DNA from: an uncultured Porphyromonadaceae bacterium
GTDB lineage: Bacteria > Bacteroidota > Bacteroidia > Bacteroidales > UBA12481
DNA: 64,000 nucleotides
Assembly: GCA_964512915.1 (NCBI GenBank)
Contig: CAZEKJ010000004.1
Coordinates: 41,347-105,346 of the forward strand
Direction: 5' to 3'
The notes beneath the pieces are model-generated. The model ran no database searches. It was not told the DNA's origin and was given only the letters and a program-made list of their open reading frames with translations. Shown one piece after another: positions 9,197-60,841 of this stretch; positions within the stretch are counted from its first letter, which is position 1; each line of letters opens with the position of its first letter. A program made the position numbers and the translations under genes.

Positions 9197-9259
9197 TCGA
9201 GTCGGATAAATAACCGAAAGTCTGTGGGGGCTGATCAAAGGTAGTGAATATTCTTATAT

Positions 9260-9540
9260 CCACCTCAACCCCGGTCCCCATAGCCGTCAACCTAAGGGAT
9301 TTCCATCTAGATAAACAAGGGCAAGAGGGCAAAAAGGCAGGAGTGCAAAAAGTAAAGGTTTAATAAGAAAAGACTTAAGTTGTAAGTGTGACCATCGGCA
9401 AGTGTGTGGTTTACTTTTTATTTTGCATGACTTAAAACTTTACTTCTTGTCTTTTTGCCCTCTTGCCCTTTTGCCCTAAGCCGGTTAGGCAGCCGAAATA
9501 TCCCTTAGGTTGACGGCTATGGGGTCGGGCGTTGAGGTGG
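9260..9540. repeat. 281-bp nested inverted-repeat element (outer 40-bp arms; inner GGGCAAR arms; AT-rich core)
   Basis: Outer arms 9260-9299 and 9501-9540 (ccacctcaac...catagccgtcaacctaaggga and its complement, about 4 mismatches). Inner arms 9315-9358 and 9438-9476 (gggcaagagggcaaaaag... / ctttttgccctcttgccc). The core contains agtaaagg and cttaag motifs shared with other copies. Confidence 0.9.
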
Positions 9541-9586
9541 ATCAGCACGAAAACAAGTACCTTCGCTACCCAAAAGACCAGCACGC

Positions 9587-13275: not shown

Positions 13276-15723
13276 CTATTTTTCCTGATACAACCACTTC
13301 TTAAACTTTTCACCCGTGAATCTCTTGGGAACTTTCGTGGCTGTTCCATCAAAATACAATTTATAGGATACCGATGGGATGATCGGGAAGAAACTCATCT
13401 GGTACATATTGGTGGCCTTAAAATCGGTGAGGTTTTCCGGTCGCTCGATATAGTTATCGGTCCTGGTGTTGAAATAGTAGAAATAAGGGTTATGCCGGTT
13501 GTAAACGTTGTACACTGAGAATGTCCAGGTGGCCTTCCGGTTGCGTTTTGTAATCGTATTTAAGGTGGCTCCCACATCCAGCCGGTGGTAGTCTTTCATC
13601 CGGCCGCTGTTTCGATCCCCATACATCAGCACTTCATAATACCCAAGATTCCCGTTTTCATCGGGCTCGGTATCCAGAGTCAGTTGCCGGCCCAGAACCG
13701 GTGTATACGGCAAACCGGTCTGATAAACCCAGGTGAGGCTGGCCGACCATTTCTCATTGAACTTATGATTGATATTCAGCGATGCAGTATGCGGCCGGTC
13801 GAAATCAAAGGCAAATTCCTGTCCCTTATTGATTTGAGGGAATTGCCGCGTAGTCCGGGAGTAGGCATAGCTGGCAAAACCGGTCCAGTCGCCATATTGC
13901 TTTTTTACCAGGAATTCCACCCCGGCCGATCGCCCCGTTCCCCCGGTTACCACCTTGCTGCGCCAGTCGAGATCGCCCATCAGGCTTGAATACCCTTCCC
14001 GGTAAGTGGCCAGATTCGAAAGCGTTTTATAATATCCGGTTATTTCAGCGGCGTATTGGCCGTTATGGAAGCTGCTGTTCCATCCGAGTGTATACTGGTC
14101 GGACCGGGCCGGATCGATTCCGGCACCAGCCGGTACCCACACCTCATTATTCATCACGCTCCCGGCGGTAAAAAGAAGTTGTTCATTCTGGGTAACCCGC
14201 TGATAACTTGCAGAAAGCTGCTGATCAGGAGCCAGGGTCAAATTGATTCGGGCCCTCGGTTCAAGAGACATGGAACTGAATCCTTTGGTAAGATAACCAA
14301 CCCACCGTAATCCCAGATTGGCTTCAATCCTGCTGCCCAGAGAGAATTTATTATCCAGATAGAGTGCCGGTTCAAATGCTCTGAGCCGTTCAACTACCGG
14401 CTGTTGTTCCAATGTGGATTGATAATAGGAGTTCGGGATATGATCCAGGTATGAGGCCTGCAGTCCTGCATCGAGTGACCACCAGTTCAGAACCTGTACC
14501 TTGAGATTAGATCGTATCGACAGATCCGCCACCGATGAGAGATAATTGCGGTCGAATATCGGATGCTTGATGGAGTCGGTTATTGTATAATTCTGGAACA
14601 GGTTCAAACGATACCGCGTGTAAGAGAGGGTGTTGGTCATAAAAATCCGGGGGGATATTACGTGATTCCAACGGGCAGAAGCCAGCCAGTTACCCCATGC
14701 ATTCTTCAAATGACTCTTTTGAGTCTCCTTTACACCTCCTTTTTCATTTTTCTGCACCGACCAGTAGTTCAGATAATCATCCCCCTGGTAAAGATTCAGG
14801 TGAAAGCTGTTTCGTTCATCCGGTTTCCAGGTAAACTTCCCGTTCAGATCATGGAACCCATAAGCAACAACCAAACCATTCATATCGATGATCCTGGTAA
14901 CAGTCGCCATCAATGGATCGATCAGGGTTTTACGACCGGTGAGGATAAAGCTCGAATTCTTGAGTTTGGTTGGTCCCTCCACGGTAAATGACAGGTCCGT
15001 TACCCCCAGGCTTAATGATCCCTTCAAACTCGTCCGGTCCCCTTCACGCTGGGTAATATCCACCACCGAAGAAACCCGACCTCCAAACCGTGCCGGGAAA
15101 CCGCCCTTATAAAGATCAATCGAATTAATAATATCAGGATTAAACACCGACATGAACCCACCCAGATGGTTAACATAAATAACCGGAACATTATCAAACA
15201 GATACAGGTTTTGCCCCGGGTCCCCGCCTCTGACAAGAAGCAGGCTTGAACCCTCATTCTGGGCCTGGATACCAGGCAATAGCTGCATGCTTTTCAGCAC
15301 ATCGGGCTTGCCCCCCAGTGAGGGTAGCTGCCTGAGCTCACTGATTCGCAGGGTCGACACATTATTGACCGGTGTCCGTAATCCTTTAACTACCACTTCT
15401 CCCAGCTCCTCTCCCGGCACCAGCGCTACATCAATCAGGGTATCCTTTGGCACTGAAAAAGCCACCTCTGCAGGTTTATATCCGACATAGGATATCTTTA
15501 CCGTGCCTGGAATCCTGACCACGAAAGAAAAGTAACCGTTATTATCCGAAGAGGTTCCGCCTTTATCATGGGTCGAACGGATGTTAGCTCCGATTAACAG
15601 TTCACCGGAGTGTTGATCCCGCACGAACCCTGAAATCCGGGTCTGGCCCTGACCATGCATAGCCGGAAAGATAAAAAGCAATGACGCCAAGATCAGGAAT
15701 CTAAATACTATTTTGAATTTCAT
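13276..15723 (-). CDS. TonB-dependent receptor with N-terminal CarboxypepD_reg-like domain
   Basis: 815 aa. Signal peptide, ISGFVRDQHSGELLIGANI (carboxypeptidase-regulatory-like fold), a plug region (LLPGIQAQNEGSSLLLVRGG) and a long beta-barrel. Overlaps the upstream DUF4249 gene by 4 nt. Confidence 0.8.
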   Translation of the reverse strand: MKFKIVFRFLILASLLFIFPAMHGQGQTRISGFVRDQHSGELLIGANIRSTHDKGGTSSDNNGYFSFVVRIPGTVKISYVGYKPAEVAFSVPKDTLIDVALVPGEELGEVVVKGLRTPVNNVSTLRISELRQLPSLGGKPDVLKSMQLLPGIQAQNEGSSLLLVRGGDPGQNLYLFDNVPVIYVNHLGGFMSVFNPDIINSIDLYKGGFPARFGGRVSSVVDITQREGDRTSLKGSLSLGVTDLSFTVEGPTKLKNSSFILTGRKTLIDPLMATVTRIIDMNGLVVAYGFHDLNGKFTWKPDERNSFHLNLYQGDDYLNYWSVQKNEKGGVKETQKSHLKNAWGNWLASARWNHVISPRIFMTNTLSYTRYRLNLFQNYTITDSIKHPIFDRNYLSSVADLSIRSNLKVQVLNWWSLDAGLQASYLDHIPNSYYQSTLEQQPVVERLRAFEPALYLDNKFSLGSRIEANLGLRWVGYLTKGFSSMSLEPRARINLTLAPDQQLSASYQRVTQNEQLLFTAGSVMNNEVWVPAGAGIDPARSDQYTLGWNSSFHNGQYAAEITGYYKTLSNLATYREGYSSLMGDLDWRSKVVTGGTGRSAGVEFLVKKQYGDWTGFASYAYSRTTRQFPQINKGQEFAFDFDRPHTASLNINHKFNEKWSASLTWVYQTGLPYTPVLGRQLTLDTEPDENGNLGYYEVLMYGDRNSGRMKDYHRLDVGATLNTITKRNRKATWTFSVYNVYNRHNPYFYYFNTRTDNYIERPENLTDFKATNMYQMSFFPIIPSVSYKLYFDGTATKVPKRFTGEKFKKWLYQEK

Positions 15724-16643
15724 CGTTTCCTGGGTTCAGGGTAAATAACTTCAGACCGATACACGGAGAAACCGGCCACAATCCCCATGGCGTTCCTGAC
15801 ATTCGAATAGAGCGGGAACGCATGGTAAGGACCGAATTGAAAATCGGGAAAGCGTCCGGTATTATACAGGTGTAACTGCTTTAAATACTGGTAGTAGTGC
15901 CAGGAAATCGATATAAAATCTACAGTAATCGGATAATACGATTCCAACATGACATAGTCCGGGGGTGGTCCATTATAGCCGTATGAGGAAGCATTGTAAT
16001 AATCAACCTGAAGAGTATAGGTGCTGTCCATAATATTCCCGGTGCTGAACACGGCAACCGGCAATCCTTCCGTAAGAAGGAGAGGATCTTTAAATTCACA
16101 CAGGGGTTTAAGCCTCCAGGAGGAAAACAGTGTGCTGTCGCGAATCATAACCTGAAAGTATTGAGTCTTTTTCCGGTCGACCGGGAAAGTAATCCGCACT
16201 CCTGGGTAAGAGTACCCCTCCTCATTAATTTCTGCAAAATTGATGTGTTCAACTGCCAATAGTTTTACTGGTGCGGGAATCGTGTCTGTTGCCGTAATCT
16301 CAGGGAATCCGGGAACCATAACCTGAATCCGGTAGATATTACCTGCCTTTGCTTTGGCATTGCTGTGATAATACCCGTTACCTGCATGAGGCAGGTTACC
16401 CAGGAGTGTATCATTCACAAAACAGCTCACAGTGGCATGATCCACCAGCGTAAGCGGAACGGTATCCAGCTTTCCCGACAGAGAAACATGGACCTTAATC
16501 AGGCTGTCAGCGGCCAGATAGCTGTTAACGGCCGGAACCGGGGTGAAATCGGGGAATTCATCCTGCACCAGCTCCCGGCAGCCGGTCAGCAACAAAAAGG
16601 CAAGTAATCCCGATAACGGAAGTAAACGACCAATTCGCACCAT
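15720..16643 (-). CDS. DUF4249 family lipoprotein
   Basis: 307 aa with lipobox LLLTGC. Its position directly upstream of, and overlapping, the TonB-dependent receptor is the usual DUF4249 context. Confidence 0.6.
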   Translation of the reverse strand: MVRIGRLLPLSGLLAFLLLTGCRELVQDEFPDFTPVPAVNSYLAADSLIKVHVSLSGKLDTVPLTLVDHATVSCFVNDTLLGNLPHAGNGYYHSNAKAKAGNIYRIQVMVPGFPEITATDTIPAPVKLLAVEHINFAEINEEGYSYPGVRITFPVDRKKTQYFQVMIRDSTLFSSWRLKPLCEFKDPLLLTEGLPVAVFSTGNIMDSTYTLQVDYYNASSYGYNGPPPDYVMLESYYPITVDFISISWHYYQYLKQLHLYNTGRFPDFQFGPYHAFPLYSNVRNAMGIVAGFSVYRSEVIYPEPRKR

Positions 16644-16710
16644 GGGTCAAATTTTTCAGTAAGTGAAGATCCTGAAGAACAAGGGGGATGATCAAAGGTA
16701 CGAAAAAAAT

Positions 16711-16737
16711 CGTGACGCGTGATGCGTGACCCGTGAT
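16711..16737. repeat. CGTGANS heptamer array
   Basis: Preceded by cgaaaaaaat: cgtgacg cgtgatg cgtgacc cgtgat. Confidence 0.9.
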
Positions 16738-16743
16738 TTGTGT

Positions 16744-16762
16744 GGCGGACCCGTGGTCCGCC
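16744..16762. repeat. GGACC-CGT-GGTCC-type mini-hairpin
   Basis: ggcggacc-cgt-ggtccgcc, a perfect 8-bp stem. Confidence 0.85.
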
Positions 16763-16775
16763 CGGTATTGGGGCT

Positions 16776-17018
16776 GGGACAAAATGATAGTCACCCTCGG
16801 AGTCTGCTACAAATTGCCACTAGCTTTAGCTAGTGGTTTATGTTGATTCACAGTATTTTATGGGCTTAAGCCCAATTTTTATCTCCTGAATTTACCCAAT
16901 CAATCATCAGGAACAGAGTTGGCCTAAAGGCCTCAATGTTCTATTTATCAACGCATTCCACTAGCTAAAGCTAGTGGCAACTGGTAGTGGGCTCCAAGGG
17001 TCACTATCATTTTGTCCC
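16776..17018. other. 243-nt multi-stem structured element (candidate MITE or structured RNA)
   Basis: Terminal 21-nt inverted repeat gggacaaaatgatagtcaccc / gggtcactatcattttgtccc (1 mismatch). Internal mirrored hairpins ccactagc-ttta-gctagtgg (16817-16836) and ccactagc-taaa-gctagtgg (16968-16987). Central palindromes gggcttaagccc (16862-16873) and ggcc-taaa-ggcc (16921-16932). Confidence 0.8.
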
Positions 17019-17071
17019 ATCCATGTTTTGTCCCCCTCCAACATATAGAAGCTCCTCCCAACCCTCAATAT

Positions 17072-17119
17072 CACATTGGCAAATTGGTAAATTGGCACAT
17101 TACCACATTGGCACATTAC
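17072..17119. repeat. 8-mer tandem array (CACATTGG-type) x6
   Basis: cacattgg caaattgg taaattgg cacattac cacattgg cacattac. Overlaps the GH92 stop (17116-17118). Confidence 0.9.
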
Positions 17120-19356
17120 TTCATTGAAATTCTCAGCTCCCCGCCAGCCGTGATTTCCTGATGTGTGATGTACATCCGATCGAGTGGTTTGTCATTCAAG
17201 GTGATACTTTTAATATAGAAATTCTGCGGTGTAAGGTTTTCGGCCGTTACCGTGAATTTCTTGTCGCCCGGCAGGTTGATGCTCACTTTGCTGAACGACG
17301 GGGTGCCGATCTGGTAAATTCCGTTGGCGGGGTTCATCGGGTAAAAGCCCATGGCGCTGAACACGTACCAGGCCGACATGGCGCCGCAGTCTTCATTGCC
17401 GCACAGGCCATCGGGCTGGTCGGTATAAAGGGTGGTGCAGATCCGATGGACGATCTCCTGGGTTTTTTCCGGTGCACCGGCGAGGTTATACAGATATGCC
17501 ACATGGTGGCTGGGCTCATTGCCCTGTGCATACTGGCCCACCATGCCGGAAATATCGGGAGAGGCATTGGCGCCTTCTACCTTGGCGGTGGTATTGAACA
17601 ACGAATCGAGCCGGGCCACGAACCGGTCCCGTCCCCCCATCAGGCTGATCAGGTCATCGGGATCCTGGGGAACAAACCAGGTGTACTGCCAGGAGTTGCC
17701 TTCGGTAAAATCGTGCACATCGTGACTGCTGTAAAGCGGATTAAAATTCTGCCGCCAGCTGCCATCAGACATACGGCCGCGCATAAACCGGGTTTCCGGA
17801 TCGAATACATTCCGATAGTTCTTCGACCGGGTCATGAAGTACTGGTAATCTTCTTCCTTTCCGAGTTTCTTTGCCATCTGCGCGATACACCAGTCGTCAT
17901 AGGCATATTCCAGAGTCTGGGATACCGACTGGTTCTCCAGGTCGGCGGGAAGGTACCCGAAAGCCTTGTAGTTTTTAAGTCCGCGCCCGTCATCCAAGGC
18001 ACTCTTCTTCATATCGGAATAAGCCTTCTCATAATCAAAAGGAAATCCCTTGAGAGCTGCATCCACGATAACCGGAATGGCGTGATAACCAATCATGCAA
18101 TTTGTTTCGCATCCCTCCAGGGTCCAGACCGGCAGGAGTCCGCTTTCATCGGCATGGGCCAGCATGGCCTTTATCAGGTCCGGAATACGCTCGGGCTGAA
18201 CCAGGGTAAACAGCGGGTGTGCCGAACGGAAAGTATCCCACAGGGAGTAGACGGTATAGTTATTCCAGCCATCGGCCTGTTTAACCGTCCGTGCGCTGTC
18301 GCTGCCCCGGTACCTGCCGTCAGTATCAGAAAAAAGTGACGGGGCAATCATTGAGTGATAAAGCGCTGTATAAAAGACAGTCTTGAGCCTATTATCCGAT
18401 GTACTGGCTTCGATTTTACCTAATTCCTGATTCCACTTTTCCCGTGCAGCCTTCTTTACTTTATCGAATTTCCACTCGGAATTCTCAGTTCTCAAATTCG
18501 CCAAAGCTCCCTGCTCATCCACCGGAGAGATTCCCACTTTCATCAGCAGTTCGCCTCCTTTGCCAAAGGAGAGGATTGCCTCAGTATATTTTCCGCTCAC
18601 GTTCCTCATTCCGGGGTTCTCGAGTCCGGTTTTATATAGCATAAAAGATGAAATCGGCCGGTTGAAGACGGCTGCAAACCAAACCTGCTGATTGTTGGCC
18701 CACCCTTTGGATTTGCGGTATCCGGTTATCAGGGTATCGTTTTCAACCCTGATAAAGGTGGCAGCAGGGGCATCCCAGTTAATGGCAAAACCCAGGTCGA
18801 GCATGAGGTTGGCCGCCTCTCCCTCGGGATACCGGTACCGGTGCATGGCTGTCCGCTCCGTGGCGGTAAGTTCAACTTTAATGGGATTCTGACGGGTTTC
18901 GGCATCCCGCAGGGTGACCCTGTAATAACCGGGCGAAGCCGATTCATCATCATGGGAGAACACTGCCTTGAACCGCTGGTGAAACTCTTTTCCGCCATGG
19001 TATTCTGAAGCCGGGAGGTTCCGGGTGGTGGGCTGGAACAATATATCAGCCAGGTCTCCGATACCCGTACCGCTAAGATGCTTATGGGAGAAGCCCACGA
19101 TTATCGAATCGGAATAGTTATACCCCGAACACCAGTCCCATCCGTTTGTTCCATTATCAGGGCTCACCTGAACCATGCCAAAGGGGAGTACAGCGCCCGG
19201 AAAGGTATGGCCGTGGGCGGCGGTTCCGATGAAGGGGTTTACGTATTTTGAATAATCTTCCTGGACGGTATCGGAACAAGATGTGAGGAGGAAGGCGAAA
19301 GGAAAAAGGCGAAAGGCGAAAGAAAGACTTAAGACAAAAGACTTTAAAGAGTTCAT
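17116..19356 (-). CDS. GH92 alpha-mannosidase
   Basis: 746 aa. Canonical GH92 N-terminus VNPFIGTAAHGHTFPGAVLPFGMVQVSPDN, with full-length similarity to alpha-1,2-mannosidases. Residues 11-22 of the signal peptide are encoded by a heptamer repeat arm. Confidence 0.9.
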   Translation of the reverse strand: MNSLKSFVLSLSFAFRLFPFAFLLTSCSDTVQEDYSKYVNPFIGTAAHGHTFPGAVLPFGMVQVSPDNGTNGWDWCSGYNYSDSIIVGFSHKHLSGTGIGDLADILFQPTTRNLPASEYHGGKEFHQRFKAVFSHDDESASPGYYRVTLRDAETRQNPIKVELTATERTAMHRYRYPEGEAANLMLDLGFAINWDAPAATFIRVENDTLITGYRKSKGWANNQQVWFAAVFNRPISSFMLYKTGLENPGMRNVSGKYTEAILSFGKGGELLMKVGISPVDEQGALANLRTENSEWKFDKVKKAAREKWNQELGKIEASTSDNRLKTVFYTALYHSMIAPSLFSDTDGRYRGSDSARTVKQADGWNNYTVYSLWDTFRSAHPLFTLVQPERIPDLIKAMLAHADESGLLPVWTLEGCETNCMIGYHAIPVIVDAALKGFPFDYEKAYSDMKKSALDDGRGLKNYKAFGYLPADLENQSVSQTLEYAYDDWCIAQMAKKLGKEEDYQYFMTRSKNYRNVFDPETRFMRGRMSDGSWRQNFNPLYSSHDVHDFTEGNSWQYTWFVPQDPDDLISLMGGRDRFVARLDSLFNTTAKVEGANASPDISGMVGQYAQGNEPSHHVAYLYNLAGAPEKTQEIVHRICTTLYTDQPDGLCGNEDCGAMSAWYVFSAMGFYPMNPANGIYQIGTPSFSKVSINLPGDKKFTVTAENLTPQNFYIKSITLNDKPLDRMYITHQEITAGGELRISMK

Positions 19357-27807: not shown

Positions 27808-27925
27808 TGGGTTTCGGGTATCAGGTATCGGGTTTGGGGTTTGGGGTTTGAGGTTTGGGGTTTGAGGTTTGAGGTTTGGGGTTTATTTGAGATTTGTTTT
27901 TTGAGGTTTGAGATTTGAAAATACA
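27808..27925. repeat. G/T-rich GGTTTGR/GGGGTTT array between coxIII and coxIV
   Basis: gggtttggggtttggggtttgaggtttggggtttgaggtttgaggtttggggttt... Four GGGG runs lie within 27830-27884 on the coding (+) strand. Confidence 0.9.
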
Positions 27926-31093: not shown

Positions 31094-31109
31094 AGTGTAG
31101 AATTTAAAT

Positions 31110-31266
31110 GGCCTCCCTGCGGTCGGCTAACAGGCCCTTCGGGCTAAAAGGGGCTTCGCCCTAACAGGCATTTGGCAATTTCTCTATTAGCGCGAAGCGC
31201 CTGTTAGGAGCGCAGCGACCTCTTAGGAGCGAAGCGACCTATTAGCGAGCGCAGCGAGCCTATTAT
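31110..31266. repeat. Modular linker-plus-mini-hairpin element, copy 1
   Basis: Left half: cctccctgcggtcggc-taacagg-cccttcgggc-taaaagg-ggcttcgccc-taacagg. Right half: tattag-cgcgaagcgc-ctgttagg-agcgcagcga-cctcttagg-agcgaagcga-cctattag-cgagcgcagcgag-cctatta. Confidence 0.9.
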
Positions 31267-33234: not shown

Positions 33235-33404
33235 CTAAAAGGCTCGGCTTTAGCCTCGCTAAAAGGTCGCTGCGCTCCTAAAAGGGGCTGAAGCCCTAAC
33301 TCGCACGACGGTTGCCTCTCTATTAGCGCGAAGCGCCTGTTAGCGACCGCAGGGAGCCTTTTAGCGAGGCGTTAGCCGAGCCTCTTAGGAGTGAAGCGAC
33401 CTGT
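33235..33404. repeat. Modular linker-plus-mini-hairpin element, copy 2
   Basis: ctaaaagg-ctcggctttagcctcgc-taaaagg-tcgctgcgctc-ctaaaagg-ggctgaagccc-taac ... tattag-cgcgaagcgc-ctgttag-cgaccgcagggag-ccttttag-cgaggcgttagccgag-cctcttagg-agtgaagcga-cctgtt. Confidence 0.9.
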
Positions 33405-34085
33405 TCATTCTTTTCGTTCAAACACCAACTCCCCAAAATACTCCGGCCGGTGATAATCGGGCTTCTCTGTGCCCACCGGATTCCAGGTCAGATAGTGGGG
33501 CTGCGTGAGTTTATCCCCGCATTTATAAAAGTTTGCCTTGAAAGTTTTTCCCCCGAGGCTCCCGATCTCTTTGCCGGCAAAGGCTTCAACCGGGATGGCA
33601 ATGGTCAGTTCCCAGGATTGTTCTCCTCTCTTTTCGCTGAAGGGTTTGGTTCCCATGGTTCCCATCCTGCGTATCTTGCTGATATAGGACGGATCAACCT
33701 TTTTGCTGTCGGCCCGGCCCGTCCCCTTGCCCAGGAGACAGGTTCCTATCGGGTTAAACTCAAAATTGTAATAGATCCCGTCGGAGTCGGGGGATACAAA
33801 GAATTCTACGCATGAATCTTCGCAAACACTTTCGTTGGAACTATCTTTTTCGGCCAGTACGAAGTTCTCCGTAACATAATACTTCAGGTAAATTTCAGAA
33901 TCTCCGTATCCGATATTGAATCGCACGGCCGGTTTATTGACATATCCATCCCAATTAACCGTACTGATTTCATGGCCTTTACCGAGGGCATCGAGGGCTT
34001 TTGAAACCTCATTCAGATCCGGCTGAGGAGCAGAAAACCCCAGCCAGGGAACCATAATAGTCTTCATTAGTAATTCTAGTAGCAT
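33405..34085 (-). CDS. Carbohydrate-binding family 9-like (DOMON-like) protein
   Basis: 226 aa. VEFFVSPDSDGIYYNFEFNPIGT and the FYKCGDKL...YLTWNP pattern resemble CBM9-like domains. Weak call. Confidence 0.45.
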   Translation of the reverse strand: MLLELLMKTIMVPWLGFSAPQPDLNEVSKALDALGKGHEISTVNWDGYVNKPAVRFNIGYGDSEIYLKYYVTENFVLAEKDSSNESVCEDSCVEFFVSPDSDGIYYNFEFNPIGTCLLGKGTGRADSKKVDPSYISKIRRMGTMGTKPFSEKRGEQSWELTIAIPVEAFAGKEIGSLGGKTFKANFYKCGDKLTQPHYLTWNPVGTEKPDYHRPEYFGELVFERKE

Positions 34086-39903: not shown

Positions 39904-41079
39904 ATGGTCATTGCTGTCAACTGCCGCTTACTTCAGAAGAACAGGCTCGAGGGCATCGGGTGGTTCACCTATGAAACGCTCAGGCGCATCACACGTGATC
40001 ATCCTGAGCATCAGTTCATCTTCATTTTCGACCGCCCCTATTCATCGGAGTTTATTTTTTCTGATAATATAACCCCGGTGGTGGCCGGATTTCCTACACG
40101 CCACCCCATTTTGTGGCTGCTTTGGTTTGAGGTGGTGATCCCCCGGGTGCTAAGAAAATACAAGGCTGATATTTTCTTTTCCCCGGATGGATTTCTCTCC
40201 CTGCGCACCCGGGTGAAATCGATCCCCGTGATCCATGACATCAGTTTTGTGCACCGGCCCGGTGACCTGCCCTTCTGGCCGCGTGTCTATTACAACTATT
40301 TCTTTCCCCGGTTTGCCCGGAAAGCCTACCGGATCTGCACTGTATCACAGCACAGCCAGAAAGACATGAACCGCACCTGGGATACTGCCCGGGCCATTGT
40401 ACGGGTGGTTCACAACGGCGCCAATGCCGCCTACCAGCCCCTCACCCCTGAAGAGATCCGTGCCACACGGGAAAAATATACCGGGGGTCAGCCTTATTTT
40501 CTGTATGTGGGTTCACTCCACCCCCGGAAAAATGTCGGCAACCTGCTGGATGCCTATGACCGGTTTTCCAGCGAAAACGGGCCGGACGTGAGGATGGTTG
40601 TGGTTGGGGAGAGGATGTGGAAGAAGAACGTGACGCGTGACACGAAAAACGTGATGCGAAACACGGATTCTTTCGGATCACGCATCACGCGTCACGATCC
40701 TCCCGTTTTGTTCACCGGCCGTCTCGAGCCCGATGAACTTCGCCTGGTGATGGGCGCTGCACTGGCCCTGACCTTTGTTCCCTGGTATGAAGGTTTTGGC
40801 ATACCGGTGGTGGAGGCGATGGCAGCAGGTGTGCCGGTACTGACCTCCCATGTGACCTCCCTGCCTGAAGTGGGCGGCGAGGCGGTTCTCTATGCCGATC
40901 CCGCCTCAGTGGAAAGCATTGCGGAGGGCATGACGCGATTAGCCGCTGATGAAAAATTGCGACATGACCTCATCGAAAAAGGGCTCGAACGGTCAAGGAG
41001 CTTCAGCTGGGACAAGACCGCGCGGAAGGTTTGGCTGACGATAGATACGGTGATCAGGGCGATACGAACGTACAAGTAA
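39904..41079 (+). CDS. Glycosyltransferase family 4 (GT-B, group 1)
   Basis: 391 aa with the C-terminal motif EGFGIPVVEAMAAGVPVLTS. Carries an in-frame palindromic repeat element at 40629-40696. Confidence 0.8.
   Translation: MVIAVNCRLLQKNRLEGIGWFTYETLRRITRDHPEHQFIFIFDRPYSSEFIFSDNITPVVAGFPTRHPILWLLWFEVVIPRVLRKYKADIFFSPDGFLSLRTRVKSIPVIHDISFVHRPGDLPFWPRVYYNYFFPRFARKAYRICTVSQHSQKDMNRTWDTARAIVRVVHNGANAAYQPLTPEEIRATREKYTGGQPYFLYVGSLHPRKNVGNLLDAYDRFSSENGPDVRMVVVGERMWKKNVTRDTKNVMRNTDSFGSRITRHDPPVLFTGRLEPDELRLVMGAALALTFVPWYEGFGIPVVEAMAAGVPVLTSHVTSLPEVGGEAVLYADPASVESIAEGMTRLAADEKLRHDLIEKGLERSRSFSWDKTARKVWLTIDTVIRAIRTYK
40629..40696. repeat. Palindromic CGTGAYG-type element inserted in frame inside the GT4 gene
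   Basis: cgtgacgcgtga (40629-40640) pairs with tcacgcgtcacg (40685-40696). cgtgatgcg (40650-40658) pairs with cgcatcacg (40681-40689). Translated as NVTRDTKNVMRNTDSFGSRITRHD. Confidence 0.85.
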
Positions 41080-41260
41080 CAGGTCGCTGCGCTCGCTAAA
41101 AGGCCTCCCTGCGGTCGGCTAATAGGCCCTTCGGGCTAATAGGGGCTTCGCCCTAACAGGCAATTGTGTTCATGCTCTATTAGCCCGAAGGGCCTATTAG
41201 CCGACCGCAGGGAGGCCTCTTAGCGAGGCGCCAGCCGATCCTCTTAGGAGCGCAGCGACC
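41077..41260. repeat. Modular linker-plus-mini-hairpin element, copy 3 (best long hairpin)
   Basis: taacagg-tcgctgcgctc-gctaaaagg-cctccctgcggtcggc-taatagg-cccttcgggc-taatagg-ggcttcgccc-taacagg ... tattag-cccgaagggc-ctattag-ccgaccgcagggagg-cctcttag-cgaggcgccagccgatc-ctcttagg-agcgcagcga. Three module pairs are exactly complementary. The first TAA is the GT4 stop. Confidence 0.9.
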
Positions 41261-41277
41261 CATTTATTTTAATTACC

Positions 41278-41907
41278 ATGCCAAAAGATCGTACCCACCC
41301 CACCCTCCTGCCTTCCCCCAGCCTCGCTACTGCCGGCTGCGATGAGGCGGGCCGCGGCTGCCTGGCCGGGCCGGTGTTCGCCGCCGCGGTGATCCTGCCG
41401 GCTGGGTTTACGCATCCCGATCTCAACGATTCCAAGCAGATGAGCATGAAGAACCGCAACCGGCTGCGTTTGGTGATCGAGGATTCGGCGCTGGCCTGGG
41501 CCGTAGCCCGGGTCGAGGCAGAAGAGATTGATGAGATCAACATTCTCAATGCCAGCATTCTGTCCATGCATCGGGCCCTATCGGAATTAAAAATAAAACC
41601 GGAATTGCTCCTGATCGACGGTCATCGGTTCAAACCCTGGTCCGATGTTCCACACCGTTGTGAAATAAAGGGTGATGGGCGATTCCTTTGCATCGCCGCC
41701 GCCTCCGTACTGGCCAAAACCCACAGGGATGAATACATGCTGGGAATCCATCAGGAGTTTCCTCATTATCACTGGGATCACAACATGGGCTACCCCACAC
41801 GGGAACATCGGGATGCGATACGCCGTGAAGGGATCACTCCGCATCACCGGAAGAGTTTCAGGCTGCTCGACGGGCAGATGGAGATCCCGTTTATGATTGA
41901 CGATTGA
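41278..41907 (+). CDS. rnhB: Ribonuclease HII
   Basis: 209 aa with canonical [25 protein letters not shown] and ASVLAK blocks. The last codons and the stop lie in a GATTGAC array. Confidence 0.9.
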
Positions 41908-43640: not shown

Positions 43641-43826
43641 AAACAGGTCGCTGCGCTCCTAAAAGGCCTCCCTGCGGTCGGCTAAAAGGCTCCCTTCGGT
43701 CGCTAACAGGCGCTTCGCGCTAATAACGCTTTATAGCTATTGATTGTTAGGGCGAAACCCCTTTTAGCCGACCGCAGGGAGGCCTTTTAGGAGCGCAGCG
43801 ACCTGTTACCGAGCGAAGCGAGGACA
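43638..43826. repeat. Modular linker-plus-mini-hairpin element, copy 4
   Basis: aaacagg-tcgctgcgctc-ctaaaagg-cctccctgcggtcggc-taaaagg-ctcccttcggtcgc-taacagg-cgcttcgcgc ... ttag-ggcgaaacccc-ttttag-ccgaccgcagggagg-ccttttagg-agcgcagcga-cctgtta-ccgagcgaagcgagg. Fills the whole convergent spacer. Confidence 0.9.
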
Positions 43827-44921: not shown

Positions 44922-45080
44922 GTTACTGGTTAAGATCGGTTGCCGGTTGCCGGTTGCCAGTTGCCGGTTGGGCCAGAACTAGTTTCCAATAATAATGAAT
45001 AACCTGAAATTTCGGTCCTGGCTCAAAAAACTGGTAACCGGCAACCGGCAACCGGTAACTGCTAATAACCAACCAGTAAC
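44922..45080. repeat. 159-bp hairpin element with GGTTGCC / GGCAACC heptamer arms in the corA-typA divergent spacer
   Basis: Outer gttactggtt (44922-44931) pairs with aaccagtaac (45071-45080). ggttgccggttgccggttgccagttgccggttgggccag faces ctggc...ctggtaaccggcaaccggcaaccggtaac. About 40-nt AT-rich loop. Confidence 0.9.
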
Positions 45081-49002: not shown

Positions 49003-49200
49003 TTGCAGGCGCAGGGGGTGGAACAAAAGAGGGCAGAAGGGCAGGAGGGCAGAAGGGCAAAAAGTAAAGGATAAAAATAATAGGTAACAAAATACTAGTA
49101 TGTTTATAATGTGCGCCTTAAACTACTTATCACTTTTCACTTTCCTTTCTGCCCTTCTGCCCTCCTGCCCTTCTGCCCTCTTTTGTCCCACCCCCTGCAA
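49003..49200. repeat. Hairpin element with 49-bp near-perfect GGGCAGAA/GGGCAGGA arms
   Basis: 49011-49059 (gcagggggtggaacaaaagagggcagaagggcaggagggcagaagggca) is the reverse complement of 49150-49198 with one mismatch. 90-nt AT-rich spacer. Sits in a divergent promoter region. Confidence 0.95.
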
Positions 49201-53606: not shown

Positions 53607-53738
53607 CGACGCAAGCGTGCGCCCGCGTAACGCACCTGTAGGGGCGAACCCGCGGTTCACCCGGGATGGTTCGTGGGGAGTGACCAGTGACCAGTGACCA
53701 GTGACCAGTGACCAGTTCGTGATGCGTGACGCGTGAAG
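53602..53738. repeat. Composite spacer: CGTGA-like tract, GC hairpin, (GTGACCA)x5, CGTGAYG x3
   Basis: 53602-53635 cgtgacgacgcaagcgtgcgcccgcgtaacgcac. 53636-53666 ctgtaggggcgaacccgcggttcacccggg. 53680-53714 five perfect gtgacca. 53718-53738 cgtgatg cgtgacg cgtgaag. Confidence 0.95.
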
Positions 53739-54883: not shown

Positions 54884-54969
54884 CGTGAGGCGTGACGCGT
54901 GATGCGAAAAACCGGTAACTGGTAACCGGCAACCAGCAACCAGCAACCAGCAACTAGTAACCAGCAACC
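54884..54969. repeat. CGTGANS x3 followed by RGYAACY x8
   Basis: cgtgagg cgtgacg cgtgatg cg aaaaacc, then ggtaact ggtaacc ggcaacc agcaacc agcaacc agcaact agtaacc agcaacc. The last units encode AGY-stop of GH29 (54954). Confidence 0.95.
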
Positions 54970-56505: not shown

Positions 56506-59364
56506 ATGATTCGCCTCTTTGTATGTGCATCAATGTTCTGTATGTTCCTGGCCGGCTCCGGCCAAAACATCGGCACTTTCGATTATTTCGCAAACAACTG
56601 GAATGTGGCCGGATTGAAGGACTACCCGCGGGGAGCACGGATCAGTCCGGAAAACCTTGTGTATCTGGATGAATCAAACGGGGTAGTTGAAATCCGATAT
56701 GGAACAAATCTTACACCGCTGAGCCGGAAAGAGGGCAAGCTGGCCTGGGAGGGCTGGATGCCGATCATGCAGGTTCAGTCGGCTGAGGGCGGTATCCGCT
56801 ATGATTTTACCATCTGGGCGACCCCGATGCCGGATGTTAAAGAGTGGCAAAAGGCTTTCGACTGGCCGACGGAAGGGGAGAATTTCGCGGTCTGGATCCG
56901 GTATACGGCGACCAATACGTCCTCAAACCCGGCCCGGGCGCGGTTACATATCGGAATAAAACCAATAAAAAACTACGGTAATCATCTGATTGATAAAATA
57001 CTGGCTCCCGGTGAAACATTGGAGCAGGCAGCCCGGTATCCATTCTTTTCCATCAAAAATCCTGATGCGCTTACGGCTGCCGATTATAAGACCTGGTTTG
57101 ACCGGACAGTCGGATATTGGCATGAAATAAAGAGTTCCATCGCCCTGATCGAGGTTCCGGAGAAAAAGGCAACGGATGCCTTGAAGGCTGCGCATGTTTG
57201 CCAGATGATCGCCAATGATCTCGGGGAGGTTCGCGGCGGCGAAGGGTTTTATGATGAGTTCTACATCCGCGACGGGGCGTATCAGGTTATGGAACTGGAG
57301 GAGGCCGGCATGTGGGAGGCTGCGCGAAAATCCATCGAATTATATCTGCCCAGGCAGCGGGAGGACGGCCGTTTTGAATCGCACACCGGGCAATTTGACG
57401 CAAACGGTCAGGCTCCCTGGGTGTTGTGGCAGTATTACAAGATGACCGCCGACCGGGCTTTTCTGGAGCGGGTGTATCCGAAGATGCGGAAGTCGGCCGA
57501 CTGGACTATCGGAACTCTTAAGGAAACACAGAATGACCCGGAATACCCCGGGCTGCTCCCGAAGGCTTTGGCAGACGGGGAATATCTGTGGGCGGGTCAG
57601 AACCATATCGTCGGGTATGATTTCTGGAACCTGCGGGGTTTGCTCGTGACGGCGGATGCTGCGCGAATCCTTGGAAAGATGGATGAGGCATCGGAATTGA
57701 ACAGGATTGCTGAACAATACCGCTCGGCGATTAATGCGGCCATGAAGAAAAACGGATTGGCACATTTTCCCCCGAGCTGGGAGCTTATCGGGACTCATTG
57801 GGGCAATACCGAAACCCTCTGGCCCACTCCGATCTTTCCGAAAACCGATTCACGGGTGACTTCCCTGGTGGATTTTCTCAGAAACGATTTTGTGGGTGGA
57901 TATGCGGAAGGAACGATCCGATGGAACGGGTACCCGGATGTGATCCATCCCTATATGGGGGCGTACACGACCATGGCCGACCTCAGTTTGGGCAACGACG
58001 AGCGCGTGGTGGAGGATTTTTATTGGTATCTCCTCCATTCGACCGCAGCGCATGCGTTTCCGGAAGGAATATTCTATAAAACGCAGACCGCCTGGGGCAA
58101 TACGATACCACATGTTACCGGGGCCTGCAACTATGCGATCATGCTGCGGCACATGCTGGTTCATGAAGAGGGCGATGAGCTGCACCTGCTAAAGGCCGTG
58201 CCAGACGGGTGGCTGGCCGACGGGAAAGAGATCCGGATTGAGCGGCTGCCCACCTGGTTTGGGAATGTGACGATGGTCATTAAGGGGACAAAAGAAGGCG
58301 TTGAGGTAAAATTTGAAGGTCCCAACCGGGAGAAACCAGCCAGGATTTTTCTTCACCTGCCGGATAACCGCAAGCTGGTGAGTCCGTTGCCGGGTGTTGT
58401 GGTTGAGCTCCGCAAACCGCAGTCTGTACAGTGGAATTTTGAGAAGGTGGTAAAACAGTACCAGGCAATGCAGGAGAAGCCGGTGACTAGCATTCGTTTT
58501 GGCATGATGACCGATGTGCACAAGGATATCATGCATGATGCGGACCAGCGGTTAACCTCCTTTGTGAAAGAGATGACCGCCATTCAGCCGGACTTCACCA
58601 TTCATCTCGGCGATTTTTGTCAGCCTGCAGCCAAAAACCGGGAGTTTCTGGGGATCTGGAATTCCTTTCCCGGAGCCCGGTATCATGTATTGGGCAATCA
58701 CGATATGGACGGGGGATTCAGCCGTGACTCGACTGTTTCATTTTACGGGGCAAAGGGGAAATACTATTCCTATGACCGGGGTGATTTTCATTTTGTGGTG
58801 CTGGATGCTAACGAGGTGAATCCATCGCCATCCCGGCCGGCAGGCTATGCACATTATATCGGGAAAGAACAGCAGGATTGGCTTCGAAAGGACCTGGGCA
58901 AATCGAAACATCCGACGGTTGTTTTTTCCCATCAGCCCCTTCCCACCGGTATTGACAACTCCAAAGAGATCCTGGCCCTGCTGGCGGAAGCCGGAAAAGC
59001 AAATCCTGCCGGAAAGGTGATCGCCTGCTTCAACGGCCACGACCATGCCGATCAGGTTAAAAAAACCGGGGACATCTGGTTCATCCAGGTCAACTCTATG
59101 TCGTACGACTGGCTGGGTGATGCCTATGTGCATAAAAGTTACCCGGATTCGATACATAAAAACTACCCGGCTATTCAGTATACCGCACCTTACAAGGATC
59201 CGCTTTGGGCTGTTGTCACGCTAAGTTCAGACGGTACCATTAAAATTCAGGGAAGGAAAAGTGAGTGGGTAGGGTCTTCGCCGATGGAACTGAAGCATCC
59301 GGGGAAAGGGGGCGGAATGAAGTTTTCGGCGGGGATTATGGATACAGTACTTCTGTTGAAATAG
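56506..59364 (+). CDS. Large secreted protein: N-terminal (alpha/alpha)6-like domain fused to a C-terminal calcineurin-like metallophosphoesterase domain
   Basis: ORF 56416-59364; the first 30 codons read through a heptamer array. The ATG at 56506 gives MIRLFVCASMFCMFLAGSGQ. The C-terminal 280 aa carry phosphoesterase motifs (MTDVHKD, LGDF, GNHD, FSHQP, NGHDH). Confidence 0.55.
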   Translation: MIRLFVCASMFCMFLAGSGQNIGTFDYFANNWNVAGLKDYPRGARISPENLVYLDESNGVVEIRYGTNLTPLSRKEGKLAWEGWMPIMQVQSAEGGIRYDFTIWATPMPDVKEWQKAFDWPTEGENFAVWIRYTATNTSSNPARARLHIGIKPIKNYGNHLIDKILAPGETLEQAARYPFFSIKNPDALTAADYKTWFDRTVGYWHEIKSSIALIEVPEKKATDALKAAHVCQMIANDLGEVRGGEGFYDEFYIRDGAYQVMELEEAGMWEAARKSIELYLPRQREDGRFESHTGQFDANGQAPWVLWQYYKMTADRAFLERVYPKMRKSADWTIGTLKETQNDPEYPGLLPKALADGEYLWAGQNHIVGYDFWNLRGLLVTADAARILGKMDEASELNRIAEQYRSAINAAMKKNGLAHFPPSWELIGTHWGNTETLWPTPIFPKTDSRVTSLVDFLRNDFVGGYAEGTIRWNGYPDVIHPYMGAYTTMADLSLGNDERVVEDFYWYLLHSTAAHAFPEGIFYKTQTAWGNTIPHVTGACNYAIMLRHMLVHEEGDELHLLKAVPDGWLADGKEIRIERLPTWFGNVTMVIKGTKEGVEVKFEGPNREKPARIFLHLPDNRKLVSPLPGVVVELRKPQSVQWNFEKVVKQYQAMQEKPVTSIRFGMMTDVHKDIMHDADQRLTSFVKEMTAIQPDFTIHLGDFCQPAAKNREFLGIWNSFPGARYHVLGNHDMDGGFSRDSTVSFYGAKGKYYSYDRGDFHFVVLDANEVNPSPSRPAGYAHYIGKEQQDWLRKDLGKSKHPTVVFSHQPLPTGIDNSKEILALLAEAGKANPAGKVIACFNGHDHADQVKKTGDIWFIQVNSMSYDWLGDAYVHKSYPDSIHKNYPAIQYTAPYKDPLWAVVTLSSDGTIKIQGRKSEWVGSSPMELKHPGKGGGMKFSAGIMDTVLLLK

Positions 59365-59377
59365 CGAGATCAAACAT

Positions 59378-59531
59378 AAGGCAGAAGGCAGAGGGCAGAA
59401 GGCAAAAATTAGGACGAAGAAAAATGAAAAAAGAAGGAAACTGCTTCTAATCCAACTTGTTACTTAACTTGATTCTTAAGGATTAAGGACTTAAGACTAA
59501 TTTTTGCCTTCTGCCCTCTGCCCTCTGCCTT
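59378..59531. repeat. Hairpin element (GGCAGAR arms, 35-bp inverted repeat with 1 mismatch), copy A
   Basis: Left arm 59378-59412 aaggcagaaggcagagggcagaaggcaaaaattag. Right arm 59497-59531 is its complement apart from one base. 84-nt core. Confidence 0.95.
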
Positions 59532-59568
59532 GTTCTCCCACGACCACCTTTCCTAATACCAAAAATCC

Positions 59569-60696
59569 ATGACCCGCCACGAACGACTTCTTCGATCCCT
59601 CCGCGGCCTCCCGGTCGATCGCCCACCCGTCTGTTTCTACGAAATAAACGGCTACGACGAGCATCCGGAAGATCCTGATCCGTTCAATATTTTCTCCCAT
59701 CCCTCCTGGAAACCTCTAATCTACCTGGCCCGGGAGAAAACCGACCGGATCATCATGCGGGGCGTGGCTTTCAAGGAGATCGCCCCCGACCCGATCGGCC
59801 ACATTGCCGCCGATCAAACCACCCTAAAAAACGGCTCCCGGTACATCCGGCGAACCGTTCATGCGGGCAGGCGCATCCTGACCATGGAGACCCGTCAGGA
59901 TCCGGATATCAACACCATCTGGACCACCGAGCCGCTGCTCAAGGATCTGGATGATCTGGATGCGTTCCTTGAACTCCCCGTTTTCGGTGCCGGTGAAACC
60001 GTGAATGCCATTGAATTCCTTAAAGTTGAAGCCGATATCGGAGATACAGGTTTGGTCATGATCGACACGCCCGATCCGCTTTGCCTGGCTGCACTCCTCT
60101 TCGACATGAGCAATTACACCATGGTTGCCCTCACCGAACCCGAGCGCTTTCATAAATTACTGCAACGGTTCTCCGAGGTTCTCCTTGCCAAAACGGAGGA
60201 AGTTGCAAAACTCCTCCCCGGCCGCCTCTGGCGCATTTACGGTCCGGAGTTCGCCTCCCCGCCCTACCTGCCGCCTTATCTGTTCCGTGAATATGTATCC
60301 CGATATGTTGGCCCGATGATCGACCTGATCCACCAATCGGGCGGGTTTGCCCGGGTTCACTGTCATGGCAACATCCGCGACATCCTCGATGATATTGCAG
60401 CCATGGGTGCCGATGCCATTGACCCGATCGAGCCCCCGCCCCAGGGCGATGTAACGCTAAAATATGTAAGGGAACGCTACGGCGACCGCCTTGTCCTCTT
60501 CGGCAACCTCGAATGTGCCGATCTCGAAAACCTCCCGACTTCCGAATTTGAAAAGAAAATCCGCCAGGCCCTCGACGAAGGCACCGCCGGCTCCGGCCGC
60601 GGCTTCGTACTTATGCCCTCTGCTTCGCCATATGGGAGGGTGCTGGGGGAGCGTGCAATGAGGAACTATGAGGCGATGATCCGGGTAATACAATAA
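59569..60696 (+). CDS. Uroporphyrinogen decarboxylase (URO-D) family protein, MtaA/CmuA-like
   Basis: 375 aa. N-terminal MTRHERLLRSLRGLPVDRPPV and a C-terminal HCHGN...DPIEP pattern typical of the URO-D superfamily. Flanked by two inverted copies of one repeat element. Confidence 0.65.
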   Translation: MTRHERLLRSLRGLPVDRPPVCFYEINGYDEHPEDPDPFNIFSHPSWKPLIYLAREKTDRIIMRGVAFKEIAPDPIGHIAADQTTLKNGSRYIRRTVHAGRRILTMETRQDPDINTIWTTEPLLKDLDDLDAFLELPVFGAGETVNAIEFLKVEADIGDTGLVMIDTPDPLCLAALLFDMSNYTMVALTEPERFHKLLQRFSEVLLAKTEEVAKLLPGRLWRIYGPEFASPPYLPPYLFREYVSRYVGPMIDLIHQSGGFARVHCHGNIRDILDDIAAMGADAIDPIEPPPQGDVTLKYVRERYGDRLVLFGNLECADLENLPTSEFEKKIRQALDEGTAGSGRGFVLMPSASPYGRVLGERAMRNYEAMIRVIQ

Positions 60697-60841
60697 GGCA
60701 GAGGGTAGAAGGCAGAAGGCAGAAATTAGTCTTAAGTCCTTAATCCTTAAGAATCAAGTTAAGTAACAAGTTGGACTAGAAGCAGTTTATTTCTTTTCAC
60801 CTATTTCTTCTTACTAATTTCTGCCTTCTGCCCTCTGCCTT
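60695..60841. repeat. Hairpin element (GGCAGAR arms), copy B, inverted relative to copy A
   Basis: Arms 60695-60729 and 60814-60841. The 84-nt core (60730-60813) is the reverse complement of the copy A core (first 45 nt identical, about 85 percent overall by eye). Confidence 0.95.

Follow-up and report, generated by a model that had tools for sequence, protein, structure and literature searches.

A probable REPIN-type mobile hairpin of an IS200-like transposase-associated family in the DUF4249-GH92 spacer of an uncultured Porphyromonadaceae bacterium

The 64,000-nt stretch of DNA analyzed here (hereafter the window; positions 41,347 to 105,346 of contig CAZEKJ010000004.1, assembly GCA_964512915.1) comes from an uncultured Porphyromonadaceae bacterium and carries, in the spacer between a DUF4249 gene and a GH92 gene, a multi-stem inverted-repeat element at 16776-17018. 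This element is most likely a non-autonomous mobile hairpin of the REP/REPIN type, that is, a doublet of inverted repetitive extragenic palindromes (REPs), from a family that moves together with an IS200-like transposase of the Y1/HUH type. The family is apparently new to the literature searched, with a non-canonical foot beside each palindrome and a partner enzyme of the IS200-like subclass 1.2. A preliminary description, made from the letters of the window, had proposed instead either a transposable element of the miniature inverted-repeat type (MITE) with unusual ends or a structured non-coding RNA. The parts of the element are as follows.

16776-17018, no strand: inverted-repeat element as first noted, 243 nt; the repeat proper spans 16772-17022
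16810-16984, no strand: REPIN-like core, 175 nt, with a REP and its foot at either end and, between the REPs, a spacer that bears two small hairpins
16810-16836, plus strand: left foot CAAATTG and REP hairpin CCACTAGC-TTTA-GCTAGTGG (hairpin 16817-16836); the window has C at -7
16862-16873, no strand: small inner hairpin GGGCTTAAGCCC of the left half, about 25 nt away from the REP
16874-16920, no strand: variable centre (apical region) of the REPIN; family centres vary in length and sequence
16921-16932, no strand: right inner small hairpin GGCCTAAAGGCC (GGCC-TAAA-GGCC), 25 nt from the REP
16958-16984, minus strand: right REP hairpin CCACTAGC-TAAA-GCTAGTGG (hairpin 16958-16977) and foot CAACTGG (CCAGTTG on the other strand)
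16776-16809, plus strand: left private outer arm GGGACAAAATGATAGTCACCCTCGGAGTCTGCTA, which pairs with 16985-17018
16985-17018, minus strand: right private outer arm, which pairs with 16776-16809

The two REPs of the window are inverted relative to each other, with a TTTA loop in the first (16817-16836) and a TAAA loop in the second (16958-16977), and lie 141 nt apart from start to start. They are the two mirrored 8-bp hairpins of the preliminary description, which had located the first correctly but had set the second at 16968-16987, 10 nt away from its actual position; both of its central palindromes (16862-16873 and 16921-16932) were correctly placed. The 21-nt terminal inverted repeat that it reported is also real: the 21-mer GGGACAAAATGATAGTCACCC at 16776-16796 recurs in inverted form at 16998-17018 with one mismatch, and shuffled sequences gave 0 matches to it. 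The full inverted repeat is nonetheless longer than had been noted, with arms of 104 nt each (16772-16875 and 16919-17022) that are 78% complementary. Compared in register, the two halves of the element are identical at 20/20 positions in the REPs, 34/41 in the outer arms plus foot, and 24/39 in the inner arms. A 255-nt stretch folds into one long rod, as anticipated, with an RNA folding energy of -133 to -134 kcal/mol on either strand (shuffles -63 +/- 5 kcal/mol, z about -14) and a single-stranded DNA folding energy of -69 versus -26 for shuffles (z -12); none of 200 shuffles folded as stably as the whole unit. The 64-kb window holds one copy of the element. A search with an nhmmer profile of the REP half found no further REP copies in the rest of the window or in the orthologous loci, and shuffles of the window contained no match to the REP 20-mer.

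Outside the window the same palindrome is abundant. The exact REP 20-mer CCACTAGC-TTTA-GCTAGTGG was found at more than 119 loci in genome_contigs (species-representative genomes, 596 Gb) and at more than 120 loci in metagenome_contigs (a metagenome collection), and 240 loci among the matches listed, with 345 exact hits, provided the family statistics given here. The hosts of the 119 genome loci listed were mainly metagenome-assembled genomes (MAGs) of Acidobacteriota (111 loci; Pyrinomonadaceae, Blastocatellia and Chloracidobacterium), followed by Bacteroidota (7 loci among the matches listed: L007, L010, L012, L044, L083, L090 and L110) and one unclassified genome. In one Pyrinomonadaceae MAG the sampled loci, 94 kb in total, contained at least 28 exact REPs, and family copies occupied unrelated genomic contexts. 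Adjacent exact hits were mostly inverted, a TTTA-loop copy on the plus strand being followed by a TAAA-loop copy on the minus strand 89-168 nt away. From 64 such inverted pairs a common plan was derived, which reads [TTATA]AATTG-CCACTAGC-TTTA-GCTAGTGG ... GGCTTTAGCC on the left and GGCTAAAGCC ... CCACTAGC-TAAA-GCTAGTGG-CAATT[TATAA] on the right. In 324 unique half-elements the conserved part consisted of the foot T.AATTG (T at -7, AATTG at -5 to -1) and the hairpin; the information content was confined to foot and REP, and conservation ended at about -8. An inner hairpin like GGCTxxAGCC was present in 278/345 half-elements, 17-27 nt from the REP (mode 22), and the REP half of a relative, L007 (uncultured Bacteroidetes bin-1198), has GGCCTGAAGGCC where the window has its right inner hairpin.

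The window element fits this plan. The REP-half profile matched it at 16808-16839 on the plus strand (E 5e-11) and at 16985-16955 on the minus strand (E 1e-10), and because the foot and the hairpin spacing fit as well, we assign the core at 16810-16984, the portion in common with the public family and bounded at -7 by the 324 half-elements, to this family. The hairpins that the preliminary description had treated as internal are therefore the family-defining REPs, and the 21-nt ends, which match nothing elsewhere, are not a family terminus. Variant REPs with the same foot and loop were also found, among them CCTCCAGC-TTTA-GCTGGAGG (18 copies), CCGCCACT-TTTA-AGTGGCGG and CCACGCAC-TTTA-GTGCGTGG. 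Since the stems of these variants are kept through changes on both sides, the folded hairpin itself is the conserved trait. The REP 20-mer is absent from the papers in a literature text search, and within the literature on REPINs and REP-associated tyrosine transposases (RAYTs) in Acidobacteria or Bacteroidetes no description of the present family was found. At two loci from different Acidobacteria MAGs (L037:7632-7746 and L109:2269-2382, the latter the same locus as L141:9228-9341) a REPIN lies directly upstream of homologous gene starts (MKILITGGAGFVGSH...). Its REPs are intact and its spacers diverged at these homologous genes, which suggests an old, vertically inherited insertion.

The second line of evidence is a transposase gene enclosed by the same palindromes. 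Seven inverted REP pairs, spaced 514-737 nt apart, enclose an open reading frame (ORF) of 141-148 aa (116 aa in L239) that matches Pfam Y1_Tnp (PF01797, E 3e-28) and reaches 69.9 bits with the NCBIfam model for IS200/IS605 (NF033573, cutoff 55), with IS608 TnpA and ISDra2 TnpA as its best PDB matches. Close homologs (53% or more identical to the L020 protein, tblastn) occurred in 22/240 loci on 22 different contigs, and all 22 also carried an exact REP, within about 1.5 kb where listed. No sampled contig had two copies of the gene. The aligned proteins (141-149 aa) share the invariant residues H53, H55, W93, Q94, Y113, Q117, H120 and H121 and the motifs DHVH, WQ and Y-I-x-x-Q-x-x-H-H (YIANQEEHH in the enclosed ORF); judged by these motifs and a length of about 145 aa alone, and not by a tree, the enzyme fits subclass 1.2 of TnpAY1. 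Homologs of the enzyme abound (at least 8000 clusters at E <1e-10), and many of them carry the JGI label "REP element-mobilizing transposase RayT". One of the 22 loci is a Chitinophagales contig (L083, MAG JBBSAQ010000123.1), in which a tandem array of at least five REP hairpins (L083:1-400) precedes the transposase gene. The hairpins of this array are spaced 48-113 nt apart (two at 65 nt). Their foot is a different one, either GAATTT or GAGTTT, and hairpins of a second type, GCCACCAC-TTTT-AAGTGGTGG, alternate with them.

The genes on either side of the element, confirmed by coordinates and Pfam as the preliminary description had named them, lie on the minus strand and are separated by a 472-bp spacer (16644-17115), which also holds a further hairpin.

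15720-16643, minus strand: DUF4249 gene (Pfam PF14054, E 6e-25), downstream neighbour in the direction of transcription
17116-19356, minus strand: GH92 alpha-mannosidase gene (Pfam PF07971 and PF17678), upstream neighbour in the direction of transcription
16744-16762, no strand: separate G+C-rich hairpin GGCGGACC-cgt-GGTCCGCC, which adjoins the element and lies inside the block missing from the orthologs

Orthologous loci were found in relatives with a GH92 gene about 92% identical, among them Bacteroidetes bacterium GWF2_49_14. Three orthologs of the GWF2_49_14 type have a complete spacer of 144 bp, from which the element is missing together with its surroundings (about 328 nt in all), and in this short spacer the 8-mer array after the GH92 stop directly joins the CGTGA-type array before DUF4249. 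As part of the REPIN explanation, this copy probably entered the spacer after the split from GWF2_49_14-like relatives. The fourth relative (L241:12242-12424; GCA_964416825.1, CAYQFT010000042.1) has the first 29 nt of the 328-nt block in common with the window, followed by different small hairpins and the contig end. The hairpins of its spacer are CCCCCGAAT/ATTCGGGGG, CCCCGGCC-tgaa-GGCCGGGG and GTTACT-gaag-AGTAAC. The spacer downstream of GH92 seems to be a hot spot, both of palindromic insertion and of assembly breaks.

By analogy with known systems, a mechanism can be outlined. The mobile unit would be the core, in which two inverted 20-nt REP palindromes, each with an AATTG-like foot, surround a variable spacer that bears two small GGCTTTAGCC-like hairpins. 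It would be mobilized in trans by a tyrosine transposase of the IS200-like Y1/HUH type (about 145 aa), the gene for which lies between the same inverted REPs in other genomes. As in IS200/IS605 elements (IS608 and ISDra2) and for TnpA(REP) of Escherichia coli, the enzyme may bind single-stranded DNA at the foot and the REP, the latter folded into its hairpin, make a cut next to this hairpin and reinsert it without duplicating the target.

Several observations weigh against this explanation. Neither the family nor the window has the canonical REP foot GT[AG]G: the consensus of the 324 half-elements is T.AATTG, and the window reads CAAATTG and CCAGTTG. On the NCBIfam model for REP-associated transposases (REP_Tyr_transpos, NF047646) the enclosed ORF scored 31 bits, against a cutoff of 80. 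A transposase of this type was not found in the 64-kb window, where tblastn with eight proteins from the REP-flanked loci returned noise only. The locus itself provides no clean empty site: because the orthologs lack about 328 nt, more than the length of the element, the difference from them is of the insertion type but does not form a clean pair of filled and empty sites. Finally, a homolog in a cultured member of the Bacteroidota, Flavobacterium cheongpyeongense (L247:1490-2180, QJHK01000005.1; 146 aa, 65% identical to the L083 protein) lies between hsdM-like and hsdS-like genes in a type I restriction-modification operon. It lies 11 nt after hsdM, with no room for a REP there (the 237-nt gap on its other side fell outside the stretch inspected), so that the tie to REPs is not apparent throughout the subclass.

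A different mobile origin would be that of a classical MITE, in which the 243-nt unit with its 21-nt terminal inverted repeats (TIRs) is a deletion derivative of a DDE insertion sequence that moved by cut-and-paste with target duplication. The near-perfect terminal repeats and the orthologous spacers without the element would suit this origin. However, the terminal 21-mer (GGGACAAAATGATAGTSACCC) had no exact match in genome_contigs or metagenome_contigs, two collections to which the source genome does not belong, and the outer arms matched only each other when the window and 245 loci (1.49 Mb of family loci) were searched with up to 6 mismatches in 27 nt and with blastn-short. Moreover, no direct repeat flanks the window element (left flank ...ggggct, right flank atccat...), no target-site duplication was detected in the 64 family pairs (lengths 2-9 nt, offsets 3-13), and the sole transposase tied to the conserved core is a Y1/HUH enzyme, with whose mode of transposition the lack of a duplication fits. 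Given this enzyme and the absent target-site duplication, we regard the element as REPIN-type and a classical DDE MITE as highly improbable. What stands of the earlier MITE proposal is a non-autonomous mobile element with many relatives.

The other proposal of the preliminary description was a structured RNA. On this view the element would be a non-coding or cis-regulatory RNA that acts on the GH92-DUF4249 transcript as a terminator, attenuator or stabilizer and is kept for that role. The very stable fold on both strands, the compensatory stem changes among family hairpins and the position between two co-oriented genes speak for it, and E. coli REP elements have been reported to influence mRNA stability and termination (PMC3733652, PMC3479197). 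On the other hand, the window gave no Rfam match at gathering score, the best sub-threshold hit reaching a chance-level 19 bits where 47 were required. The element is a near-palindrome and hence folds equally well on either strand, close relatives do without it, and the family, whose copies stand in contexts that are unrelated, is tied to a transposase gene. The compensatory changes are equally expected of single-stranded DNA hairpins recognized by a Y1 transposase. A scan of the spacer for sigma-70 promoters and intrinsic terminators was uninformative, with hits only on the non-coding strand that are the REP hairpins themselves. An RNA role as the reason for the element is accordingly very unlikely; a secondary, exapted RNA effect is possible, and attenuation or stabilization of the GH92 message as an effect on the operon is speculative.

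A third alternative is that the element is a long hairpin generated locally, like others in the spacers of this genome, and that its REP-like core is due to chance or convergence. Besides the element, the window indeed has eight or more inverted repeats between genes, their arms 35-60 nt long, and a nested hairpin at 9258-9542 likewise has unique outer arms. Nevertheless, the core shares 23 nt of identity (TTG plus the 20-mer) with a family of hundreds of copies, twice and in the correct inverted arrangement, its inner hairpins stand at the family spacing, and the 20-mer did not occur in shuffles of the window. We give this alternative hardly any credence as an account of the element; it is refuted for the core and live for the outer arms only.

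Those arms require an explanation in addition to the REPIN one. The 21-nt "terminal repeat" is a piece of outer arms of about 34 nt that lie outside the family. Past the family boundary, 27/32 flank positions are complementary in the window, versus a maximum of 20 among the 64 family pairs. The 99th percentile of a mismatched-partner control (17) was reached by 4/64 family pairs, a mild excess, and one of these four, the metagenome contig L140, has its REPIN inside an inverted 7-mer array like the arrays of the window. Three origins were considered. We put at roughly even chances that an older, partly decayed hairpin, of a kind frequent in this genome, received an intact REPIN in its single-stranded tip, an origin that is favoured because perfect REPs sit inside arms that match at only 83%. 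A palindrome grown outward by snap-back or template-switch copying of one flank is a possibility we hold tentatively, and a longer, species-specific subfamily seems just as doubtful. The hairpin at 9258-9542 is built like the REPIN element, with private outer arms around a repeated core, in that unique 43-nt arms (93% complementary) surround inverted GGCAAGAG-type arrays.

The preliminary description had also remarked that a terminal motif of the element, TTTTGTCCC, recurs nearby and in the arm of another element at 49003-49200, and had seen in this a hint of a link between families. The recurrence was found at 17026-17034 and 49181-49189, with a further site at 58285-58293. The link did not hold up: the window has 5 sites versus 0.97 expected, and 3/5 lie in or beside the element. 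The two sites outside it are no excess over chance, and the motif was rejected as an inter-family link. The copy beside the element is probably ancestral spacer sequence.

17026-17034, plus strand: extra TTTTGTCCC copy, 7 nt outside the element; the spacer of L241, which lacks the element, also has GGGACAAAAC

Other repeats crowd the intergenic DNA of the window. Tandem arrays of 7-8-nt units are numerous (17058-17126, 16708-16738, 53679-53716, 54924-54969, 44937-44970, 27810-27918 and others), with units such as CACATTGG, CGTGAYG, AGTGACC, AACCAGC, CGGTTGC and GGTTTGA, and many are paired in inverted orientation, so as to form long hairpins. These arrays were also seen in the relatives L001, L241 and L110 and around the REPIN of L140. 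We presume a resemblance to the heptamer STRR (short tandemly repeated repetitive) sequences of heterocystous cyanobacteria. Clusters of small G+C-rich hairpins (31104-31265, 33260-33406, 41077-41265 and 43641-43808) form long inverted repeats, with GAAG, TTCG or CTGCGG-type loops and a period of 17-21 nt (e.g., CTATTAGCGCGAAGCGCCTGTTAGGAGCGCAGCGACC). Such a unit also directly adjoins the REP half-copy in L007, and on this ground we consider that genome a relative. A 150-nt inverted repeat (59385-59534 and 60692-60841, 91% complementary and partly made of AAGGCAGA arrays) flanks an ordinary-looking ORF of 375 aa (59569-60696) and is not a compact hairpin.

For the locus, the result is clarifying in that an odd multi-stem element most likely turns out to be a mobile REP doublet and not a new RNA. 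Beyond the locus, it indicates that soil Acidobacteria hold a very abundant REP/REPIN-like family, whose partner enzyme carries the signature of a subclass that the only survey of it (PMC6006769) reported without REP-like partners. The 20-mer, foot and inner hairpins are common to Bacteroidota contigs, the window included, and this makes horizontal spread of a REPIN-type family testable. The private outer arms would provide a dated case in which a REPIN either is nested in a larger palindrome or extends one, and bear on how long hairpins build up in some genomes. A bolder proposal, which we advance as a tentative and rather unlikely one, is that a previously unrecognized system of the REPIN-RAYT type moved between Acidobacteriota and Bacteroidota and that its REPINs target hairpin tips or seed outward growth. 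If true, a cross-phylum move with an identical 20-nt REP would contradict the view of near-strict vertical inheritance, and REPINs would help to build the nested palindromes that crowd intergenic DNA in such hosts.

The closest known systems are REPINs, as defined by Bertels & Rainey 2011 (PMC3116915), and the REP-RAYT systems described also by Nunvar 2010 and Ton-Hoang 2012. In both these and the present family, an inverted REP doublet with a less conserved spacer forms one hairpin, copies are extragenic and numerous, doublets predominate but singlets are seen as well, changes in the stems are compensatory, and the same REPs, in inverted orientation, flank a Y1 transposase gene of low copy number, with no target duplication. 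They differ in the foot, which is (T.)AATTG here and GT[AG]G in the canonical case, and in the spacing between REPs, which is 89-168 nt with inner hairpins here and 71 nt in SBW25 group I. In addition, the enzyme resembles subclass 1.2, near IS200, whereas the canonical one is a class 2 RAYT. Two phyla here have an identical REP 20-mer, whereas canonical systems are described as mainly vertical.

As for the enzyme, TnpAY1 subclass 1.2 (Quentin et al. 2018, PMC6006769) is of low copy number, occurs mostly in Cyanobacteria and Bacteroidetes, and has its associated REP-like sequences listed as "no". The transposase described here is like it in length (about 145-149 aa), in the motifs DH[IV]H, WQ and Y---Q--HH, in its low copy number and in its presence in Bacteroidetes, but many members, most of them from Acidobacteriota, lie inside genome-dispersed REP doublets. 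Elements of the IS200/IS605 family and palindrome-associated transposable elements (PATEs) likewise have a Y1/HUH transposase, subterminal hairpins that are recognized, no target duplication and short non-autonomous derivatives. The ends of IS200/IS605 elements, however, are asymmetric and lack TIRs, their hairpins have the same orientation and the insertion sequences are multi-copy, whereas the present family has ends that are inverted copies of each other and, on each sampled contig with the gene, one copy of it.

TIRYTs and TIRtrons (Di Nocera et al. 2013, PMC3733652) are similar in that a Y1 gene is flanked by inverted repeats without GTAG, some of the repeats being self-complementary and moderately abundant, and an Acidobacteria-specific group was noted among them (PMC3733652). 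Their transposases, on the other hand, mostly belong to subclass 2.1 and are longer, with helix-turn-helix (HTH) domains, and they have a GGGGWSAS motif, none of which was seen here. Bacterial MITEs such as Correia/NEMIS, ERIC and Nezha, finally, are also small, non-coding, intergenic hairpins with insertion polymorphism (probable here as well), but they are defined by TIRs with target duplications and by DDE transposases, neither of which turned up in this family, whose inverted palindromes are instead tied to a Y1/HUH gene.

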